From contig CAVYIX010000003.1 of assembly GCA_963768755.1 (NCBI GenBank), positions 52,201-116,200 of the forward strand: a DNA stretch of 64,000 nt. The letters run 5' to 3'. Positions 16,975 through 28,326 of this stretch are shown piece by piece. The stretch's first letter is position 1. Each line of letters starts with the position of its first letter. The stretch is from an uncultured Methanobacteriaceae archaeon (GTDB taxonomy: Archaea > Methanobacteriota > Methanobacteria > Methanobacteriales > Methanobacteriaceae). The translations under genes were made by a program, and so were the position numbers. The notes beneath the pieces were generated by a model. That model ran no database searches and was not told where the DNA came from. It saw only the letters and a list, made by a program, of their open reading frames with translations.

Positions 16975-17421
16975 ATGAGCTTAAAATCATATTCAAGGGC
17001 AAGAGCCATTCACATAATGCTTGTTTATACAGGAGGATGCAACGGCTGCGACATTGAGATAGTGAACTGTATATTTTCTCCAAAGTATGATGCAGAACAA
17101 TATAAGGTTTTTTTAACATGGAATCCTAGGGAGGCCGATGTACTGGTGGTTACAGGTCCAGTTACAAAACATAATGAAAAACCATTGATAGAAATATATA
17201 ATGCAATCCCAGAACCAAAGGCTGTTATTGCTGCAGGAGCCTGTGCACTCATGGGTGGAGTTTACAAGAACATACACGGGGATATACCATCAGAAGAGAT
17301 TGCAGGACCAGTTGACAATATTATTCCTGTAGATGCAAAGGTTCCAGGTTGTGCTGTTAGGCCGGAAGACATACTCTCGGGCGTTGTTGCGGCTCTACCA
17401 TTACTACTCAATGCAAAATAA
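16975..17421 (+). CDS. ehbM: [NiFe] hydrogenase small subunit (NuoB-like, group 4)
   Basis: [17 protein letters not shown] and PGCAVRPE are the proximal-cluster cysteines of NuoB/EchC-type subunits. Confidence 0.9.
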
Positions 17422-17479
17422 CGCTTAAAATCAATCTACACATATACATTAAATTAAATAGAAATTAAAAGGTGGATTT

Positions 17480-18613
17480 ATGAATGAAGATAACAAGATG
17501 ACCGATAAAAAGGTCATCGAAACAGAAATTACTATGGGAACCGTACACTCAGCAGCAATAGAACCCTACAGGGTTAGATTGTTTGTTGAAGATGAAATTG
17601 TAAGGGATGCTGAAATAACAATAGGAATCAACCACAGGGGTGTTGAAAGAATAATGGAAGGTCTGCCTGTTGAAAAAGCCAATAGCTTGACCGAGAAAAT
17701 TTGTGGCATATGTTCCAACAGCCACATATGGAACTCTGTTCTGGTGGCTGAGAAAGCCATTGGGATTGATGTACCTGAAAGGGCCCAATACATAAGGGTT
17801 ATAATGGAAGAATTAGAACGCTTACACAGTCATATGCTTTATTTGGCCCATGGAAATGAAGTATTAGGTCATGAAACCTTTGCAATGAGGCTTTTCTACA
17901 TACGGGAAACGGTAATGGAACTTTTAAGGATGATTGGAGGTAACAGAGTACAGTATGGTGCATCCATAATTGGCGGTGTTAGACCTCGTTGTGAACTTGA
18001 TGAAATGAGGATACAAAAGATCAGGGACGGCATGGATATAATTGAGGAGAAAATATTAGAATTTGCAGATAGATTTGTTTCCGATCCAATGATAATGGCA
18101 CGTATAACAGGAGTAGGTGTTTTATCACAGAAACAAGCTATTAAACTGGCTGCTACAGGCCCAACACTAAGATCTACTGGTGTGGAAATCGATCTTAGAC
18201 GGGAAATGGAATCCTATGACCCATTTGAATTTGATATAATAACACAGGACGATGGAGATGTTAAATCAAATCTCCTTGTGAGGGTCCTTGAAATTCCTGA
18301 AGCTATAAAAATAATAAGACAAGCACTTGATAATCTCCCTGGTGGTAAAATAACCAACAGAAGTTGGGAGATGCAGGATGCACCGATTACAAATAGTTAT
18401 ATTGAGGTTCCAAGGGGTAAGCTCTATCATTCCTACTCTCTTGAAGATGGACGAGTTAGAAATTGTATAATAAGAACCCCTTCAATTACCAATATTGGTG
18501 CAATGCAGTACGCTGCTGTAGGCCACCATATAACGGATGCACAGCTCGCAATAGTTCAATGCGACCCTTGTTTCACATGCACGGATCGAGCAATACAGAT
18601 AATCAAAATATAA
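17480..18613 (+). CDS. ehbN: [NiFe] hydrogenase large subunit (group 4, energy-converting)
   Basis: N-terminal Ni-binding motif [10 protein letters not shown] and C-terminal DPCFTCTDR. Confidence 0.9.
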
Positions 18614-18622
18614 AAGGAGATA

Positions 18623-19615
18623 ATGATGACAGCACTAAATTCCCTAATCGCCGTAATTGGAACATTAATAGTGGCATTATTAGTCAGCGTATGGCTTCCA
18701 GGAATAGAAAGGAAGTTTGTACAAGCGAGAATACAGCAGAGAGTTGGTCCGCCAATATCAAGTGCAGGTATTATGGCACCTATCAAATTTTTCTTTAAGG
18801 AAACGATTAACCCAAACTCACCTATGCCTAAATTGTATAATGCCCTTCCAATAATAAGCTTTTTATCTGTATTATTTATATTATTACTTACAATGCCACA
18901 ACTCTATGTATTTGCTGCATTTACAAGTATCATAGCTCTTGTAGGTCTTTTGAAGATTGAAGAAGTGATATACATGTTTATGGGTTCACTTTCAAAGTCG
19001 GTTATGTCTCTTAAAATGCCGTTTCCAGATATCGTTAAAGGAGCTAAACATCCAGATACCCCTAGATCTTACTTGGAAGAACTCAGCTCACTAAGAGCAT
19101 TCAGATTAATAGCATTTGGTTCGTTTCCATTATACATTGCTTTATTCATTCCTGTTGCAATGTCAAGGAGCATATATCTTAGTGGTATAGTAGCATATCA
19201 GCAAATCCATGGACCTATACTTTTCACATTAGCTGGCGTTTTAGGTGCTATAGTATTCTTTATAGGTTACATGATACTCTTAAATGAATACCCATTCGCG
19301 ATTCTAAAAACCAAAGCAGATGTTATTGAAGGTCCTTTAATGGAATATGCTGCTAAATATAGGGCATACAATTATATTACCAGAGGTTTCTTAATGTTTG
19401 TTCTTGCAAGTATTTTTACAACCTTGTTTTTAGGAATACCTCCAAATCTGTTTAGCTGGACAATATTAGTGACGATAGCTGTTGCTTTGATATTCCCAAT
19501 ATTAATGGCAGTTATGAGCGCATTTTCACCTATATTTACTTATAAACAGTTTTATCCAACAGTTGCGGGGGTATCTCTAATTGGAATACTGGCAATAATT
19601 GCATCATTCCTTTAA
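18623..19615 (+). CDS. ehbO: Integral membrane subunit (NuoH/HycD/MbhM-like)
   Basis: [16 protein letters not shown] is the NuoH-type N-terminal motif. About 8 TM. Confidence 0.8.
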
Positions 19616-19696
19616 ATTCATTTTATTAACCTAATGGTTAATTTAAGTATCATTTGTAAGAATATTTATACAGAAATATTGAAAATTTAAATAAAG

Positions 19697-19981
19697 GTGA
19701 TTGTCATGAAGTTCGTTGTGAGACCCATGCACATTGTCAGTGTTGGTGGATACATAGTTGAGACACAGTTCCCTTACAGGAACTTGATAGTTGTTAATCC
19801 AACAGAAGAACCCATTAAAATAGATATTCCTGTCTTTACAGAAGACTGGATAGAAGAGCACCGTCAATTGGGTCTTGAAATTACGCCCTTAACCGAAGAT
19901 GATAGTTTTCTCAGTAATTTCAGAAAGGCCAAAATTAGGCTTGAAAAACTCAAAGAAGAAAAAGAATTGAAGATTGAATAA
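19697..19981 (+). CDS. ehbP: Small hydrophilic subunit at the end of the ehb operon
   Basis: 94-aa soluble protein. SD AAAGGTGAT upstream. Named by position only. Confidence 0.45.
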
Positions 19982-19986
19982 AAGGA

Positions 19987-19996
19987 TTTTTTTTTT
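19987..19996 (+). terminator. Oligo-T tract (T10) right after the ehbP stop
   Basis: A run of ten T begins 6 nt after the TAA. Oligo-T tracts act as archaeal intrinsic terminators. Confidence 0.45.
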
Positions 19997-20134
19997 AAAA
20001 ATTCAATTAATTTTTTAGTTGATTAAACTATCGATGATTATTATTTTTAATATTAGTTCCATAAATCATCACATTTACATTTATTTACACTCTAAAATTT
20101 TATTCTCAATAAATTTGATATCTGCAGGTAATTC

Positions 20135-21421
20135 TTAGTTATGAGTGATATTACGGCAAACTCTCATTGCTAGTGCAGAAGTTAACATTATAGTTGGAAG
20201 ACCCTGTGAACGGGGCACCAGAGAAAGGTCAGCAACCCATAAGTCTTCAGGTAACCCTGATGGTTTCATCGATGAGATATCCTTTCTTTTCAGAGGCACT
20301 GTTCCACCTAAATGTCCTCCATTGTACATACCTTTTACGAATGGACCCGAAACACCTGAAGCTTCCATTATTTCTCTTGCATACGACACTGCATTATTAA
20401 TTTTATTTTCATCTTTCTCGGTCACCTCCTTTTCTACCTTACCATCGGAGAATACAGTTCCATTTTCCATGTCTGCTAGTTTTACCATAATTCCAACTCT
20501 ATCATTTAATGAAACATTTCGCCATGGTTTATGAAAGAAATGTGATAGTACATCTAAATATGGAGATAATATGAAGTCTTCATGTTCTGTATACCATACC
20601 ATTGGAGGCTCATTAATCTGTTTTGAATCTTTAAAAGTACCACCAAGAGTTAAGACTATATCAACCCAAAGTTTGTTTTCTGCATAAAGGCTTGATGCTT
20701 TTAATATCTGAGCTGTTCCAACTCCCCCCGCAGCGAGTACCACTACATCACCTTTTATTATCCTAGTTGTACGACCTGATCTAACTAGAACGCCATGAAC
20801 ACGATTTTTTTCAATTAAAACCTTTTCAACAGGAGATGATGTTATTAGTACTGCCCCTAATTTAATTGCTTCGTCCAAAAATTGAGTGGAATCCCATCTA
20901 GCACCTGTGGAACAGCCCATTTCACAAAGACCGCAAGAATTGCATTTATGCAATTTAACAGCTTTTGGTGTTGGATTAGGGTTTAATCCCAGTATCTTTG
21001 CCGAATCGTACATCTTTCGAGTTAAAGGTCTCCATCTTTTCAGTGGTATAGGTCTGATATCTATTCGATCTTCGATTTCTTCAAATTCGGGTGTGAGATC
21101 TAATCCCAATTCTTTTAAACCATTATCTGCCCTTACCATGTTACCACAGGATAGTACAGTCGAACCACCTGTTGTAATTCCCCTTACTAGTACAAGATCT
21201 TTATTCGAGCGAAATGCATCCATATATGGAAATATTCGGGTTATTGTCTTTTCATCACCTAGTAGGCCTAATCTTCGAAGTGGTTCAGTCAGTGTGAGAT
21301 ATCTAGTGAATGGTTTAAATGGTTTTCCGGCTTCTAGTATTGTAACGTCATAACCTTTCAAAGCTAATTCAAGTGCTGCCGTTCCACCTCCCGCACCAGA
21401 ACCTACAACTATTGCTTTCAT
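20135..21421 (-). CDS. GMC-family FAD-dependent oxidoreductase with ferredoxin-type Cys motif
   Basis: [20 protein letters not shown] is an FAD GxGxxG motif. The C-terminus [10 protein letters not shown]...[28 protein letters not shown] is GMC C-terminal-like. Internal [14 protein letters not shown] at 21421 is preferred, with AGGGGTGA 5 nt upstream. Confidence 0.8.
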
Positions 21422-21426
21422 AATTT

Positions 21427-22032
21427 TCACCCCTGTTCATTGATTTTAGAATCAATGCTTATACAGGCTGTACATTCTTCTGCACCTTCTGTTATCCGTT
21501 TTGTGAACTTCATACTCATTTTTTTATTTAAGCCCTTTAAAACACCTTCATCTGCTGCGCTCATAATTTGGCATGTTTCAGGAGAGTATTGTGTCGCGAG
21601 TTCACAGGAATTAATCCTTAACACTATATCTTTACCATTATCTTCAACTGTAAAATGTATTCCTAGTACCCTATAAATTATACGCGCTGCTACAATGGCG
21701 TCCTTCACAGTTTTAACTCCAAGGCGTTTCTTTGCATCACATCCCATTATGTATCCTGCTTTAAACAATTCAGTCCTACCCATTTTTAAAGCACATTCAA
21801 ACCCCAACTCATCAATAAGGCTTTTTACACGAATATTATGACCTGTGGCCATAATTAACTGGCGTTCTTTAAGGTTTCCTTTCAATGGGTTTTTCACAGT
21901 TGGTATCGGGATGGAATACCTCTTTAAAAGTATATCAAGATATTTGTTGGTTATTCCAGATGTTTTTTCTAATTCATTAATTAATATAAATTCTGGCATC
22001 CAAATTGATAGTAAAAGTAATTTAATATTCAT
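21427..22032 (-). CDS. V4R / ATC-hydrolase-like Cys-containing small-molecule-binding domain protein
   Basis: The C-terminal pattern RINSCE...[18 protein letters not shown]...[18 protein letters not shown] resembles the V4R and ATC-hydrolase families. ATG at 22032 is preferred, with GGGAG 5 nt upstream. Confidence 0.4.
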
Positions 22033-24901
22033 ACGTTCTCCCTTCACAACCTATGTGGATAATATTAAAGTTTGGAGATTTTTCTCTAAATTTTTGACTG
22101 TATTTATCATTATAAATTAATTTAACAAGATCTTGATGCCGTTTAAGAATATTTTTCCGTTTTAATTTTAAATTAGCTGTTAGATCACCATGTTCTATTG
22201 AAAGATCATTTTTTAAGATTACCCAACGTTTAATTTTCTCAGGATTTGAAAGTTTAGAATTTACATTTTTGATTGCAATTGATATTTTCTCTGGATCAAT
22301 ATCTTCATTAACCCATAACAAAGAAATACAGTATGGTTTTTCATCCCCAAAAACCATGACCTCTGATACTCCATTAATGTGCTTCAACATACCCTCAATT
22401 TTCAATGGACTTATACTCTTGCCGTATGAGTTGACAATCAATTCTTTTTTTCTTCCTGTAATAACTAAACTACCTTCGGTAGTTATATAACCATAATCAC
22501 CTGTAAGAAGCCAGTCATCCTGGAATAAAAGAATATTACGAGTTTTATCATTGAAGTATCCTGGGGTTACTTGAGGTCCTCTAACCGCAACTTCACCATC
22601 ATCTAATATTTTCACATCAGTTAAGGGTAAGGGTTCTCCAACAGTGCCTAGTTTGTTGGATCCAAGTCTGTTGATGGTAACAAGGGGTGCTTCTGTTAAA
22701 CCGTATGCATTATGAATTTCAATACCTAACTCGTGGTAGCTCTCCAGAAGGTCTATACTTACAGGGGCAGAACCCACAATTAACTGGGCACAATCATCCA
22801 GACCTGTTTGTTTAAGTAAAGTTCTCCTCAATATTCTGCGCAGTACATTCTTTACAATACCACTATTGACATTTAGATACATACTTCCCAACATACTTTT
22901 TTCAATTTTCGACCAGACCTTCTCATAAAATCTTGGCACCGAGAAGAAAATGGTTGGTTTAACCTTGGGTAGGGTACTTTCAAGTTCTTGGAAATCCTCT
23001 AGAAAGTAAAGTTTAAGTGATGTGGGGGCATAATACGGAGCATATATCCCTAAAATGCCTTCAACGACATGATTCATTGGTAAAAATGATAAATATGAAA
23101 CTTCTCTTGTTCTATCTTGCCAAGGAGGCATGGAGGCAATGTACTCAGCCATCCATCTTAAATTTCCATGTGTAAATGTAACTCCAGAGGGTTTTCCAGT
23201 TGTTCCAGACGTATAACGGATGGTTGCAACATCATTAAAATCTACAGGGGCAATGGAGTTACTATCTGAATTTTTATCATATTCAAATTCATTCCCTAAT
23301 GCAAGAAATTCCTTCCATGACAAAATATCAGATGGTTGTTTAACAGAATCGTTGCAGAATGATACTATGTTTTCTTTATTTTCAAGATCCATTAAATGAT
23401 CAAGCACATATGGAGTACCAATAAAAATGACTCGTGCACCACAATCATTTATGATCTCATTGATCTCTGCCATCGGGCTGGTATAATAGACTGGAACACA
23501 TACTGCACCTAATAATCCAATTGAAACATCCAAAGTAAGGTATCGGGAATTGTTGTATCCTATTATGACAACTCTGTCACCATGACCAATTCCAAGTGCT
23601 TTAAGTGATTTCACAGCATTTAATATATCTATCCTCATATCGGATGATTTTTCCCTTATAAATTTTCGGTTTATTACATCATAGTAGTTAACAGGTCTGC
23701 TCATACTTTTAAGTCTGAATAAAATCTGTTCATGAACTGTTCGTTCTGATCTATGGAAAAATCCATAGTAAACTGCATAATTTAATATTTTTGGTAAAAA
23801 TTTTTTCCAGTCCAAATCATATGGTCCAAGCAATTTTTCAAGGTTACTCCTTGAGAATTCCCTGTCTTCATTCAAATATGGTGTAAGTTCTGTGATAGTC
23901 TTTCTTAAACGTTTTCCATTTTGGCCTGAAAATTTAATGAAATATGTAATATAAGGGATTAAGGATGAAGATAGAAAGAGAGGGGTTGAAAGTTTTAATC
24001 CCAAATTATCATTGGCCCATTGCCGAATGAAATCAATAAATTCTTTAACATCGGGTAGAGTTGTGTATGGTGCTGTTAGATGGAAACTTAAACCTTCAGC
24101 TTTTTGATCAAATGTTAATTTCACCACAGCATGGGCAACATAGTCTACAGGCACCAAATTGATCTTGGTATCTTCAGAAACGGGCATTATTGGTAACTGT
24201 CTATTGAGATAAAGTCGAATAAGAACGTATATTGTGTTAAATGTTTTTATGTAACCTGATTTTGAGCTACCAACAACCATTCCCGGTCTAAATATAGATA
24301 TAGGTAACCCTGATTCTTTTACTATTAATTCTGCTTCATATTTACTTCTCTCATAATTACTTAGGAATCCATAATTATCTGTGAGTAAATTTTCTAATAT
24401 GAGGCCATCCTGCCTACCTGCAACATACGCTGTTGATAAGTGAGAGAATCGAAGGAGGCTATGATTATCGTGGGCATCTGATGCAAGTTTAACTACGTTC
24501 CGAGTTCCTTGTACATTAATTTTCCTTAGATCTTCTATTGGGGCATTTAGTCTGATATCTGCTGCCGTATGGATTATATGAGTCACATTATCAACTAAAT
24601 AATTGTATTTATCATCATCAAGTCCAAGTTTTTCTTTAGTGATGTCTCCATTAAGTAAAGAAATTTTGATTTCATGTGAGTCTGTTGTAAATTTTTTTAA
24701 CCCATTAATATTATCAATGAGATCTGGCCATTCCCACCATGCACGGAGAAGATGCCGGGATGCATCTTCAAAACTTTGACCTCTTACCAATACAATTAAA
24801 CGTAGGTTTTCATTTTTTATTAATCTGCGAACAATCTGGGTTCCGAGAAAACCAGTAGCACCTGTCAGAAAAACTATATTCTTCAATTCCCCACGTCCCA
24901 T
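22022..24901 (-). CDS. Fusion protein: N-terminal thioester/acyl reductase (NAD_binding_4, SDR) + C-terminal AMP-forming acyl-CoA synthetase/adenylating domain
   Basis: N-terminus [15 protein letters not shown] plus YERSKYEAE (SDR YxxxK). C-terminus [36 protein letters not shown] and LTGDYGY...GRKKELI are the AMP-binding core motifs. Confidence 0.85.
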
Positions 24902-26178
24902 CCCTCTTTTATCAAGAATTCTTTAAGGATTATATGGTTTTGGTTTGATCTTGCTAAATGTTCATCAAAACCTTTAATTAACCTTTTAGATATACTTTGA
25001 GGATTCTCAATAAGCTCGTCCACTGATTTACTCAGATGGTTCCAGATTTTCTGGTCTGAATTTTTTGAATATTTGTAATTAATTAAGTATTCATTATCCA
25101 TTTGAAGATCTTTGTAAAGTCCTGTAAGCCGTGGATCGTGCCCAACTGCTATCTGTGGAATATACTCTTCAAGGGACAAAACTGCAGCATGGTAACGGGA
25201 TGTAACTAACAAATCAAGACTTCTTAGAATTTCTGTCATTTGAGAAGCGTTGAACTCTTTTGAAGAAAATATCCGAGCATTTTGAGGACTCTTCATATTT
25301 TTAATAATGTTCTGAGCAAGTGGTTCATCTAATTCTTCCATACAAATGAGTGCAATGTTTTTTCCATGTTTTTCTATAATTCTATCTGCTTCGTTTGCCC
25401 ATCTAACAGCTAGTTCATTACTTCTGTGTTTTCTATTTTTAGATCTTGAAAAGTAATAAGGCCATTTGTAGAGGTTTTCATGTGGACCCCAAGGTCTAAT
25501 AACAACAGGCCAGAGGTAGAAATCAATTATTGCCAGTCCAATAAAACCTTTCTTGTGTTCTGGAAGGGATTCTTTTTCCCAAATCTTTTTTAAGATATGT
25601 TTATCTTCTGGTTCAGTCTTGAATGTGAAGGCACAATCTGCAGTATGTTTAATAGGTGCTTTTACACCTATTTTACGTAGTTTGTCTTGTGCATAAATGG
25701 TTCTTGTTATGATTAGGTCGGTTTTACTAGCTTCCCGTCTTACTAAAAACTGATTAAAATTTGATAAATCTCCAGCATCTACAGCATAAGCAATGCATGG
25801 AATCTTATAATAGTTAGCACAAGTTGTACTCCACAAAAAAGCCCAAAGAAGAGCAGAAGTCCATGTGTCCATATAACAGCTCCCTTCAACCAGCATTACA
25901 AGGTCATGGGTTTTTACCAGCTTCCTAACAGCGAAGAAAAAAATTGAAGGTATTGGAGCTATTTTCAGCTTAGAATCTTCTTTGATATACCTACGTAGAT
26001 TTTTTTCGTTTAGAGTCGGTATGGTAATAATAACTTCTGGCCCTAAAACTCTCCTTACCTCTTCTATTATAGATATGAGTCTTGTTTCAGAACCAGTATT
26101 GTTGGCGCCGTTATAACCCATCAGGAGAACTTTATTGAGTTTATTTAAATTGTAAGAATTCGGTTTATTTGATATCAT
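24883..26178 (-). CDS. Polysaccharide pyruvyl transferase family protein
   Basis: [15 protein letters not shown]-terminus and the [11 protein letters not shown] motif typical of the CsaB/WcaK-like family. First gene of the operon. Confidence 0.7.
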
Positions 26179-26414
26179 TTTTTTTTTAGAGATTTTGATT
26201 TTGTGTAAATGAATTAAATTTGTATCAACTCATGAAAGTTTTATTTATTTTTTTGATAAATATTTAAACTTCATTTATCATATTTAATTATCTCATTAGT
26301 TATGGATTATATGGTGTTTTATCAAGAATTTTAATTTAAAACTATCTACAACATACTGACTATTTTTGAAATGTATTTTAAAACTCGATAATGCATATTA
26401 ACTGTAATTCAAAC

Positions 26415-26510
26415 CTAACTATTCCTTCTATAGACCATTGTTAAAATGATAATTCCTACAATTATCCATAGAATAATCCCCATTCCTAACATGCCGATTT
26501 GATTTCCCAT
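26415..26510 (-). CDS. Candidate 31-aa single-TM micropeptide
   Basis: My translation is MGNQIGMLGMGIILWIIVGIIILTMVYRRNS. SD AGAGGGA lies 4 nt upstream of the ATG. The ORF is below the track length cutoff. Confidence 0.3.
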   Translation of the reverse strand: MGNQIGMLGMGIILWIIVGIIILTMVYRRNS

Positions 26511-26870
26511 TTTTCCCTCTTTAATTTATTTTCAAATTGATTACATTGTATAAGTATGTTACTAATACACATCATGCAAAAATAGAAATATCGTGGATGA
26601 AATTTTTAGATTTTTTATTTAATCTATTATTAAATTATAAAAATAATGAAGATATATACCAGCTAATAAGCAATATAAACCTTATTAAATTGTTATAATA
26701 ATATTATTGAGATATTCCTGAGCTGTTCAATCATTTAGTAGTTAATATCCTATTTTATAATTACATCTAATGATGTCCAATACTTTTTTTTAATATTTGT
26801 TACATAATAAAATTAGAATAAATTTTCCCTGAATAAAAAATAGTTTACAGGAAGTCTTGAATAAAATATT

Positions 26871-26884
26871 AATGATTAATCATT
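26871..26884. promoter_or_regulatory. Perfect 14-nt palindrome AATGATTAATCATT upstream of the DASS permease gene
   Basis: Exact inverted repeat about 100 nt upstream of the start, immediately 5' of an ATATTTATATGA TATA-like element. Confidence 0.25.
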
Positions 26885-26982
26885 ATAAAATATATTTATA
26901 TGATATTACCCAGTAAGTTACTTTTTGTAAATCTAAGGAGGGATAAAATACGAGAATTAGTTTTAAGACTTTAGGGATTCCT

Positions 26983-28326
26983 TTGGCTATTATTGCGTTT
27001 ATCGTGGTTATGTTGGTTCCTTTGCCGGGTTTGAGTTATTCGGGTCATGCTGCGATTGGTCTTTTGGCTTTTGCTGTTATTATGTGGGCTAGTGAGGCGC
27101 AGGTTCTTGCTGTTACTTCATTGATGTTGTTGTTTTTACAGCCTTTATTGGGAATTGACAGTTTTAATAGTGCTGTTATTGGCTTTGCTAATCCTATCAT
27201 CTTCTTGATGATTGGTGGATTTATTTTGGCGGTTGCTATTGGTAAAAGTGGGCTTGCGAAACGTTTTACCTATTGGATGTTGTCTAAGGTTGGTACTAGT
27301 CCTAGTATGAGTATTTTTGCGGCTGTTTTCTCAACGGGTATTCTCTCTGCTTGGATTGAGAATGTTGTAGCTTTTGCAATGTTGCTTCCAATTATTAAGA
27401 CTATAGTTCCTTTGTTTGGTATAGATGATCCTGAGAAGGGTAACAGTAATTTTGCTAAGGCAATGGTCTTAGGTGCTTCATATGGTTCTTTAGCTGGTGG
27501 TTTTGGTACTGAGATAGGTACAGCTCCTAACTTGATGGCTGCTGCATATACTCACTTACCATTTGTTAATTGGATGGTGTTTGGATTTCCGCTTGCTATT
27601 ATCATGTTATTTGTTACATGGAAGTTATTAGGTTGGATTTTCCCACCTGAAGTTGAAGGTATCGTAGGTGGACATGACACCTTAAATAAAGCTATTGACG
27701 TTATGGGGTCTATAACTAGAAAAGAGAAGATAACTGCCGCTATATTATTCTTTACCATAGGTTTGTGGGTTACAACTGGTATTACGGGTATTGACAGTTA
27801 TTCAGTTGCTTTAATTGGTGCTGCTCTGTACTTTGTGACAGGTGTTATTGACTGGAAAGATGCCCAGGAAGGTGTGGATTGGGGATTAATTATCTTCTTT
27901 GGAGGAGCACTATCCCTTGGAGCTGCACTATTAAATACTGGTGCTGCTAATTATATTATAACACATTTGATCGGTGCTATGGGAAGTAATGTTTCAACTC
28001 TTACAATTATGCTGTTGTTGATGGTTATTGCTGTGGTTTTCACTCAGGTAATGTCAAATATTGCATTGTCTGCGATTTTAATACCTCTTGCTGTTACTTT
28101 AGCTGCTGCTCAGGGCCAACCTATTGGAATTTATGCTGTTCCTGTTGCTATTTCATGTTCGCTTTCGTTCATGTTTCCAATGGCAGATCCGACAGTCGCA
28201 ATGGCATACGGGACTGGTTATGTAAAGATCAAGGAGATTTTAAAGGCAGGAATACCAATGGTTGTAATCGGAATTATTATGACCATAATAATAATGCTAA
28301 CTATAGCCAAACCATTCATAGGATAA
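26983..28326 (+). CDS. DASS/SLC13 (divalent anion:Na+ symporter / ArsB-NhaD superfamily) permease
   Basis: 447-aa polytopic protein with the duplicated hairpin-type motifs [16 protein letters not shown] and [17 protein letters not shown] start with AGGGA 5 nt upstream. Confidence 0.8.

Follow-up and report, generated by a model that had tools for sequence, protein, structure and literature searches.

Polysaccharide pyruvyl transferases, carboxylic acid reductases, GMC flavoproteins and V4R/Bet3-fold proteins are the closest described relatives of the four proteins considered here. All characterised members of the first family (PF04230) are saccharide pyruvyltransferases acting on lipid-linked acceptors, and in one of them, CsaB of Paenibacillus alvei, mutagenesis has shown that R148, R306, H308 and K328 bind phosphoenolpyruvate (PEP) (PMC10435577). 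Carboxylic acid reductases (CARs), such as those of Nocardia and Segniliparus (PDB 5msc/5mso), unite an adenylate-forming domain and a NAD(P)H-dependent thioester reductase domain in the order adenylation, carrier, reductase (A-T-R). Among GMC flavoproteins, the catalytic alpha subunit of the FAD glucose dehydrogenase of Burkholderia cepacia (BcGDH; PDB 6a2u), a direct-electron-transfer dehydrogenase complex, carries a surface 3Fe-4S cluster, bound by C212, C218 and C222, which relays electrons from FAD to a partner subunit, and it pairs with a small protein encoded next door (PMC6719666). The V4R/Bet3 fold is represented by PoxR, MopR and DmpR and by palmitate-binding Bet3. Here we describe a four-gene cassette that brings relatives of these proteins together on the minus strand of a 64,000-nucleotide stretch of DNA (the window) from an uncultured Methanobacteriaceae archaeon (assembly GCA_963768755.1, contig CAVYIX010000003.1, positions 52,201 to 116,200 of the forward strand). 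The genes encode, in order, a polysaccharide-pyruvyl-transferase-family protein (PT), a reductase-adenylase fusion (RA), a small V4R/Bet3-fold protein (the small protein) and a GMC-family flavoprotein (GMC) (Table 1). Full-text literature searches, whose coverage lacked most subscription journals, found no description of such a cassette and, as the original prediction had supposed, no characterised pathway built from these four genes. The cassette is a widely distributed pathway of known enzyme families, the arrangement of which is new as far as the literature search showed.

From the observed domain identities, intact motifs, folds, gene order and accessory associations, we infer that the cassette works as a single cytoplasmic enzyme module, coupled in translation, and that it transforms a hydrophobic carboxylic acid. 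This acid would most likely be a long-chain fatty acid or a comparable lipophilic acid, which ester cleavage may have set free. The role we favour, with a probability of about 40%, is the inducible processing (detoxification or conjugation) of exogenous lipophilic acids and esters in anoxic habitats rich in plant litter.

The evidence that the cassette is a unit comes from its conservation in other genomes. One genome per GTDB species was searched with an alignment of RA homologues, which gave a set of 80 loci, and the presence of each gene in a locus was determined by tblastn with the four window proteins. The co-occurrence of the four families across archaea and bacteria, which the original prediction had proposed to look for, was found in 71 of the 80 loci. 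The compact order of the window is kept in 67 loci, three loci are rotated (small protein-GMC-PT-RA, all in Bacillota) and one is split; contig ends cut three loci, and six contain RA alone (five in Bathyarchaeia and one in Thermoplasmata). The hosts belong to at least nine lineages in two domains of life, namely Methanobacteriaceae (~49 species-level genomes), Methanomassiliicoccaceae/Methanomassiliicoccales/Thermoplasmata, Chloroflexota, Bacillota, Actinomycetota, Thermotogae, Spirochaetes, KSB1 and Candidatus Vecturithrix. Rotation leaves two pairs of neighbours intact, PT with RA and the small protein with GMC. Between the window and the bacterial loci, amino acid identities amount to 46-58% for PT, 45-52% for RA, 37-56% for GMC and 26-42% for the small protein. 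The GMC and the small protein fall into two types, one found in archaea, Thermotogae and KSB1 and the other in Chloroflexota, Bacillota, Actinomycetota and Spirochaetes. All-against-all clustering of the open reading frames (ORFs) of the loci revealed no fifth gene conserved across phyla.

The genes are also tightly packed. In the window, PT and RA overlap by 19 nt (24883-24901), RA and the small-protein gene overlap by 11 nt (22022-22032), and a spacer of 5 nt (21422-21426) separates the small-protein gene from the GMC gene. These figures, which had been claimed before, hold when the two downstream genes are counted from their ATG codons at 22032 and 21421, and not from the GTG codons of the ORF listing (21427-22047, 206 aa, for the small protein and 20135-21430, 431 aa, for the GMC). 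We prefer the ATG starts because GGAGG-like ribosome-binding sites precede both of them, P0121, the database entry for the small protein (201 aa), begins with MNIKLL in agreement with the ATG at 22032, and most GMC homologues in the alignment begin with MKAIVVG in agreement with the ATG at 21421. With starts called approximately, an overlap is present between PT and RA in 59 of the 71 loci and between RA and the small-protein gene in 39 of 58. Ribosome-binding sites were found for RA, the small-protein gene and the GMC gene; PT has no Shine-Dalgarno sequence and has an A-run instead, which is the behaviour expected of a promoter-proximal gene in an archaeal transcript. The earlier view of the four genes as one coupled unit gains support from the order and overlaps conserved across two domains of life, as far as gene arrangement can indicate it.

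Because order and overlaps are conserved, no fifth gene accompanies the four across phyla and the same set occurs in both domains, the cassette is a real self-contained unit and not a chance grouping. It is not specific to methanogens, and it appears to have spread horizontally among anaerobes. A tblastn search with PT against a plasmid collection returned no match, so there is no evidence of carriage on plasmids. Apparent fusions of the small protein and the GMC (~626 aa) in high-GC loci proved to be longest-ORF artefacts, as the two tblastn matches lie in different frames. One metagenome-assembled genome (CAVOPP01) contributes three near-identical copies of the cassette on three contigs (L027, L028 and L029), with a longer RA (~1019 aa) and each within ~18-21 kb of a contig end; this points to a region that is repeated or present in several copies, or to redundancy in the assembly.

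The family assignments of the original prediction were reproduced by profile searches together with two structure predictions, the ATC-hydrolase part being borderline. By its profile scores, PT belongs to PF04230 (7e-14, 52.8 bits; cut-off 25.3) without reaching equivalog level for either CsaB or WcaK. The CsaB model TIGR03609 aligns with it over nearly its full length at 1e-23, but the 84 bits obtained are below the cut-off of 213, and the WcaK equivalog gives 29 bits against a cut-off of 399. An AlphaFold2 model (pLDDT 90.9) shows a GT-B fold, and the top Foldseek matches are GT-B epimerases and glycosyltransferases. For PT and the small protein alike, the fold was taken from predicted structures because PDB sequence searches with either protein, as a single sequence and as a profile, gave nothing significant. 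Besides the SRYH motif listed in Table 1, R159 and R350 of PT are invariant in the alignments, and R159/R328-x-H330/R350 match, by pattern only, the spacing of the CsaB residues R148/R306-x-H308/K328. PT resembles CsaB, WcaK and Pvg1p in family and in its GT-B-like fold, and its invariant R...R-x-H...R/K pattern is reminiscent of the PEP-binding residues of CsaB, but a pattern comparison shows that it departs from CsaB in the N-terminal motif corresponding to the acceptor-site region (Y14 and F16). Unlike the genes of these three enzymes, the PT gene lies outside a glycan cluster and is coupled to an acid reductase. At 50%-identity clustering, few full-length representatives are found near PT in a family of ~1,500 clusters.

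RA combines a reductase domain (PF07993, 4.5e-56, 190 bits; TIGR01746, 5e-52, 177 bits, below the cut-off of 213) with an adenylation domain (PF00501, 3.4e-55, 187.8 bits, aa 431-783) and its C-terminal subdomain (PF23562, 2e-8, 35 bits). The TGxxGxxG, YxxxK and adenylation core motifs are invariant in 13 homologues, and RA keeps all the catalytic motifs of adenylation domains and of short-chain dehydrogenases/reductases; fatty acyl-CoA reductases (PF07993) rank with CARs as its closest described relatives. The best NCBIfam matches are FadD11 (well below its cut-off) and long-chain-fatty-acid-CoA ligase, with carboxylic acid reductase also matched; the best PDB matches are adenylation domains of carboxylic acid reductases. 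Ligases of known function share only ~25-30% identity with the adenylation domain of RA. RA shares with CARs the union of an adenylate-forming domain and a thioester reductase domain, but the order of the domains is reversed (R then A) and the phosphopantetheine carrier domain is lacking: the whole protein has no PP-binding match in Pfam, and a carrier domain hidden in the linker (aa 290-430) was ruled out, no Pfam match being obtained there at E<=10. The CAR equivalog NF041592 gives 179 bits against a cut-off of 1300. Because the carrier is absent, the order reversed and the equivalog score missed, RA is, judged by its domain composition, not a member of the CAR family, although it would function much as a CAR does, or as an acyl-CoA synthetase joined to a fatty acyl-CoA reductase. 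As no carrier domain is present, the thioester formed is most likely that of CoA, and a free thiol such as CoA presumably carries the acyl group.

The RA homologues that stand alone (L064, L066, L074, L075 and L080 in Bathyarchaeia and L077 in Thermoplasmata) are 45-53% identical, and no PT, small-protein or GMC gene was found within 10 kb of them. Since RA stands by itself in Bathyarchaeia, the enzyme is probably able to work without the other three. The neighbours of the Bathyarchaeia genes (metal ATPase, zinc-ribbon, beta-propeller and histidine kinase) gave no clue to the substrate; in two of these loci a PF09826 beta-propeller protein is encoded upstream of RA. A second, shorter RA-family ORF (656 aa; L068:1828-3798, minus strand) lies ~5 kb upstream of the cassette in an Actinomycetota locus.

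The GMC matches PF00732 at 2.7e-20 (73.6 bits against a cut-off of 23), and its profile finds solved GMC enzymes in the PDB at 1e-12; the C-terminal GMC domain (PF05199) was not matched. The protein has an N-terminal GxGxxG. In an alignment of 23 sequences, His373 in GGHLGG and ADxSLxP are invariant, and the position of the catalytic partner is taken by Leu in the archaeal clade and by Asn in the bacterial one. The ferredoxin-type Cys motif to which the original prediction drew attention is invariant in the same 23 sequences, from archaea and bacteria, and aligns with the Fe-S Cys region of the Burkholderia enzyme. In the phmmer alignment, which is weak (domain E-value 2.5) and positionally consistent, C169 and C173 fall on C218 and C222 of 6a2u_B, and a constant offset puts C163 at C212. 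Since the additional Cys gives a classical CxxCxxCxxxC pattern, it is possible that the predicted site holds a 4Fe-4S cluster. The GMC of the cassette and BcGDH have in common the GMC scaffold, a Cys-rich loop at the equivalent position and a small partner protein encoded immediately upstream. They differ in that the window protein is cytoplasmic and shorter (428 vs ~540 aa), has four Cys where BcGDH has three cluster ligands, and belongs to an archaeal clade in which the second catalytic residue (Asn) is not kept. Furthermore, neither a Tat hitchhiker nor a multihaem cytochrome c gene is present in the cassette or conserved nearby, and the hosts of the cassette are strict anaerobes, some of them without cytochromes.

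The small protein is predicted with high confidence by AlphaFold2 (pLDDT 91.7), and the model matches the V4R/Bet3 fold with a Foldseek probability of 1.0 and TM-scores of ~0.5-0.69. TRAPPC3/Bet3, in its palmitoylated form, leads the matches together with the phenol-sensing domains of PoxR, MopR and DmpR; H-NOX domains come next. In sequence searches, Pfam V4R (PF02830) gave no match at E<=10, and PF14196 (ATC_hydrolase) gave 26.9 bits (E=9e-6), just under the cut-off of 28.1; precomputed PF14196 matches exist for many archaeal orthologues and not for bacterial ones. By its predicted structure the protein has the V4R/Bet3 fold, and its membership in the ATC-hydrolase family is borderline. In contrast to PoxR, MopR and DmpR, it stands alone, without a DNA-binding or AAA+ domain, and unlike described V4R/Bet3 proteins it is always encoded beside a GMC flavoprotein. 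C148, C159 and C192 are all invariant in an alignment of 80 small-protein sequences, whereas in an alignment of 22 sequences only C159 is invariant and C148 and C192 are kept at >=90%. These residues, with Y154 and D166, are conserved across archaea and bacteria and lie in the C-terminal sheet/helix region. Their placement resembles that of the MopR Zn site, and metal binding is here a candidate function only.

Taken in sequence, these proteins could act as follows. The adenylation domain of RA would activate the acid with ATP and form, most likely, a CoA thioester, which the reductase domain, using NAD(P)H, would convert to an aldehyde and possibly further to an alcohol. The small protein would bind the hydrophobic intermediate and partner the GMC, which would interconvert alcohol and carbonyl at its FAD, its predicted Fe-S cluster trading electrons with flavodoxin-, FMN-reductase- or ferredoxin-type partners and not with O2. 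Finally, PT would use PEP to add a pyruvyl group (carboxyethylidene or enolpyruvyl) to one or more hydroxyls of the substrate or product and so make it anionic. More than one order of the steps is conceivable, as PT may act on the product of RA, or RA may reduce the carboxylate introduced by PT. A more specific proposal is that PT pyruvylates, with PEP, an acceptor that is not a carbohydrate (a phenolic compound, or else an alcohol or diol with a long chain) made by the carrier-less reductase-adenylase, which we put forward as a speculative idea that is rather unlikely to be correct as it stands. Such a reaction would amount to a new, phase II-like conjugation route in anaerobes, or would give a new anionic ether or ketal lipid class common to archaea and bacteria; the V4R/Bet3-fold protein would then be the subunit that presents lipids within an anaerobic Fe-S GMC dehydrogenase, or even a thiol carrier replacing the missing carrier domain.

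Further information on the role comes from the genes that accompany the cassette in other genomes, which were detected with profiles run on the loci and by Pfam scanning of single neighbours. In many other Methanobacteriaceae loci (L012:5900-8672, L013:7238-8716, L014 and others), the cassette ends a longer same-strand array with short spacers, in which a TetR/AcrR-like regulator, DUF116, a reductive-dehalogenase/QueG-related protein with Fe-S motifs, an EstD-like esterase and an FMN reductase (iron-sulfur-flavoprotein-like) precede PT-RA-small protein-GMC. In 27 loci, among them loci of Methanomassiliicoccaceae and Bacillota, a TetR-family gene precedes the cassette on its strand by no more than 4 kb, and an FMN reductase lies near the cassette in 20 loci, including one of Bacillota and one of a Spirochaete, where it overlaps the start of PT. 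A flavodoxin precedes the cassette in an Anaerolineae locus. The EstD-like esterase adjoins it in Methanobacterium loci and in a Thermotoga locus, and another alpha/beta hydrolase lies by it in a Chloroflexia locus. In addition, one Bacillota locus has an aldehyde dehydrogenase gene directly before PT, components of ABC-2 exporters lie beside several bacterial cassettes, and MalT/LuxR-type regulators occur in two loci. In one Chloroflexia locus (L078:8047-8544), the gene directly preceding PT encodes a PEMT/ICMT-like membrane methyltransferase, which may provide further tailoring of a carboxylate product. None of the accessory families was found in the window by tblastn, and the locus there consists of only the four genes and a small upstream ORF. 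Taken together, these partial and partly lineage-restricted associations point to a regulated module that depends on redox partners and handles an ester- or acid-type small molecule by way of an aldehyde intermediate. The original prediction had named two possible products, a reduced acid-derived metabolite and a cell-surface substituent; the accessory genes favour an inducible small-molecule role over one in modifying a cell-surface glycan.

Processing of exogenous acids is favoured because the hosts share no envelope or lipid chemistry, because repressors, esterases and exporters recur next to the cassette, and because the habitats are rich in plant fatty and phenolic acids. Several points weigh against it. 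An identity of ~25-30% to known ligases cannot, at the sequence level, separate fatty, aromatic and other acids; the characterised PF04230 enzymes all pyruvylate saccharides and not lipids or phenols; and the characterised Fe-S GMC relatives oxidise sugars. The window itself has no accessory or regulatory gene, the associations coming from other genomes and being partly restricted to lineages, and spending PEP, ATP (to AMP) and NAD(P)H would make a costly detoxification for an energy-limited methanogen. The same domain evidence would also serve the synthesis of an endogenous specialised lipid, small metabolite or signalling molecule, a possibility that we consider doubtful. In that case RA would supply a fatty aldehyde, a fatty alcohol or, if it started from a hydroxy acid, a diol, PT would join the C3 unit of PEP to it as an enolpyruvyl ether or ketal, and the Fe-S GMC, with electrons from flavodoxin or ferredoxin, would reduce or oxidise the adduct by a logic like that of MurA/MurB to give an anionic ether or ketal lipid. 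The tight coupling of PT and RA suggests that the product of one enzyme feeds the other, the high conservation of PT (44-58% identity between archaea and bacteria, with few 50%-identity clusters) suggests one precise acceptor, a Bet3-like fold fits a lipid, and the Chloroflexia methyltransferase beside PT can be read in the same way. However, the unrelated envelopes and membrane lipids of the hosts disfavour a lineage-specific endogenous acceptor, there being no lipid chemistry common to them, and Methanobacterium, Methanomassiliicoccus, Thermotoga and the other hosts are not known, short of a systematic search, to contain such a lipid. The frequent TetR/AcrR-type repressors, esterases and exporters look instead like a response to external compounds, and ORF clustering showed no conserved acyltransferase, glycosyltransferase or head-group gene nearby.

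Modification of a lipid-linked or cell-surface glycan would give PT the type of acceptor used by the characterised members of its family (PMC10435577), and the nearly full-length alignment with the CsaB model as well as the sugar dehydrogenases among the Fe-S GMC relatives point the same way. PT would then ketalise a sugar of a polyprenyl-linked saccharide, RA would activate and reduce the pyruvyl or a uronic carboxylate, the GMC would oxidise a sugar hydroxyl, and the V4R/Bet3-fold protein would hold the polyprenyl tail; polyprenyl-phosphate carriers are present in archaea and bacteria alike. We nevertheless regard this explanation as improbable, since no glycosyltransferase, flippase or polymerase is a conserved neighbour in any lineage, Pfam scans detected no signal or membrane domains in the four proteins, the N-terminal motif of PT differs, by pattern only, at the positions of Y14 and F16 of CsaB, the adenylation domain of RA scores best with fatty-acid ligases, and the hosts range from pseudomurein-walled to diderm. 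That functionally unrelated neighbours were packed by chance is scarcely credible, given that 71 of the 80 loci, in archaea and bacteria, keep all four genes, that the gene pairs survive rotation of the cassette and that overlapping stop and start codons are conserved. Two further ideas were dropped. A thiazolidine/thiazoline route (aldehyde plus cysteine, oxidation and an ATC-hydrolase-like ring opening) leaves PT unexplained and ends at an N-acyl-cysteine, and links to pseudomurein, coenzyme B, methanofuran or tetraether lipids do not fit a cassette that is patchy among methanogens and shared with bacteria.

The flanks of the cassette in the window are as the original prediction had described them, with an AT-rich gap of about 800 bp upstream, in which the cassette promoter presumably lies, and the convergent end of a hydrogenase operon downstream (Table 1). 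The downstream neighbours are NuoB/NuoD/NuoH-like genes of an energy-converting hydrogenase (window 16975-19981), and this hydrogenase synteny repeats beside the cassette in ~25 Methanobacteriaceae loci. Across the gap lies a divergent gene for a DASS sodium-anion symporter (window 26983-28326). An Rfam scan of 19600-27200 found no RNA family, and a sigma-70 promoter/terminator scan, whose model is not suited to archaea, gave signal no better than shuffled controls. Located in the gap, 236 nt before PT, a small ORF has a good ribosome-binding site and encodes a hydrophobic peptide of 31 aa (MGNQIGMLGMGIILWIIVGIIILTMVYRRNS). This ORF has no Pfam family match. No other element of the AT-rich region, which diverges elsewhere, is conserved as well, and the ORF is found at the same relative position in L002 (84% identity), L003 (74%) and L009 (63%).

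Table 1 Features of the four-gene cassette and its flanks (positions in the window).
Feature	Position	Strand	Basis or remark
PT, polysaccharide-pyruvyl-transferase-family protein, 431 aa	24883-26178	minus	First gene of the unit
PT motif S327-R328-Y329-H330, invariant	25189-25200	minus	Alignments, translation checked
RA, reductase-adenylase fusion, 959 aa	22022-24901	minus	ORF call and Pfam/NCBIfam profiles
RA reductase domain (NAD_binding_4, aa 12-258), with TGATGFLG and Y183-x3-K187	24128-24868	minus	PF07993, TIGR01746
RA adenylation domain and C-terminal subdomain (aa 431-932), including GRKKE motif	22106-23611	minus	PF00501, PF23562
Small V4R/Bet3-fold protein, 201 aa from ATG at 22032	21427-22032	minus	Predicted structure and borderline PF14196
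Conserved C148, C159, C192 (206-aa numbering), Y154 and D166 of the small protein; candidate metal/ligand site	21472-21606	minus	Alignments
GMC-family flavoprotein, 428 aa from ATG at 21421	20135-21421	minus	PF00732 and alignment
GMC motif C163-x2-C166-x2-C169-x3-C173, predicted Fe-S site	20912-20944	minus	23-sequence alignment
AT-rich divergent intergenic region, 804 bp	26179-26982		GC 0.17-0.26
Small ORF, 31 aa	26415-26510	minus	
Convergent spacer, 153 bp, with T10 run	19982-20134		Between last hydrogenase-operon ORF and GMC stop codon

In conclusion, the cassette is carried by dozens of Methanobacterium-like species and by many anaerobic bacteria of wetlands, soils, digesters and the deep subsurface. 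It contains unusual enzymes, namely a carboxylate reductase without a carrier, which has appeal for biocatalysis, a cytoplasmic Fe-S GMC in strict anaerobes, and a pyruvyl transferase outside a glycan context. Fusions of the RA type would presumably be flagged as 'NRPS-like' by antiSMASH rules in archaeal surveys, and knowing the function of RA would correct such calls. If its substrates are lipophilic acids such as long-chain fatty or plant phenolic acids, the cassette matters for the tolerance of methanogens to known inhibitors of methanogenesis in anaerobic digesters, peat and the rumen.

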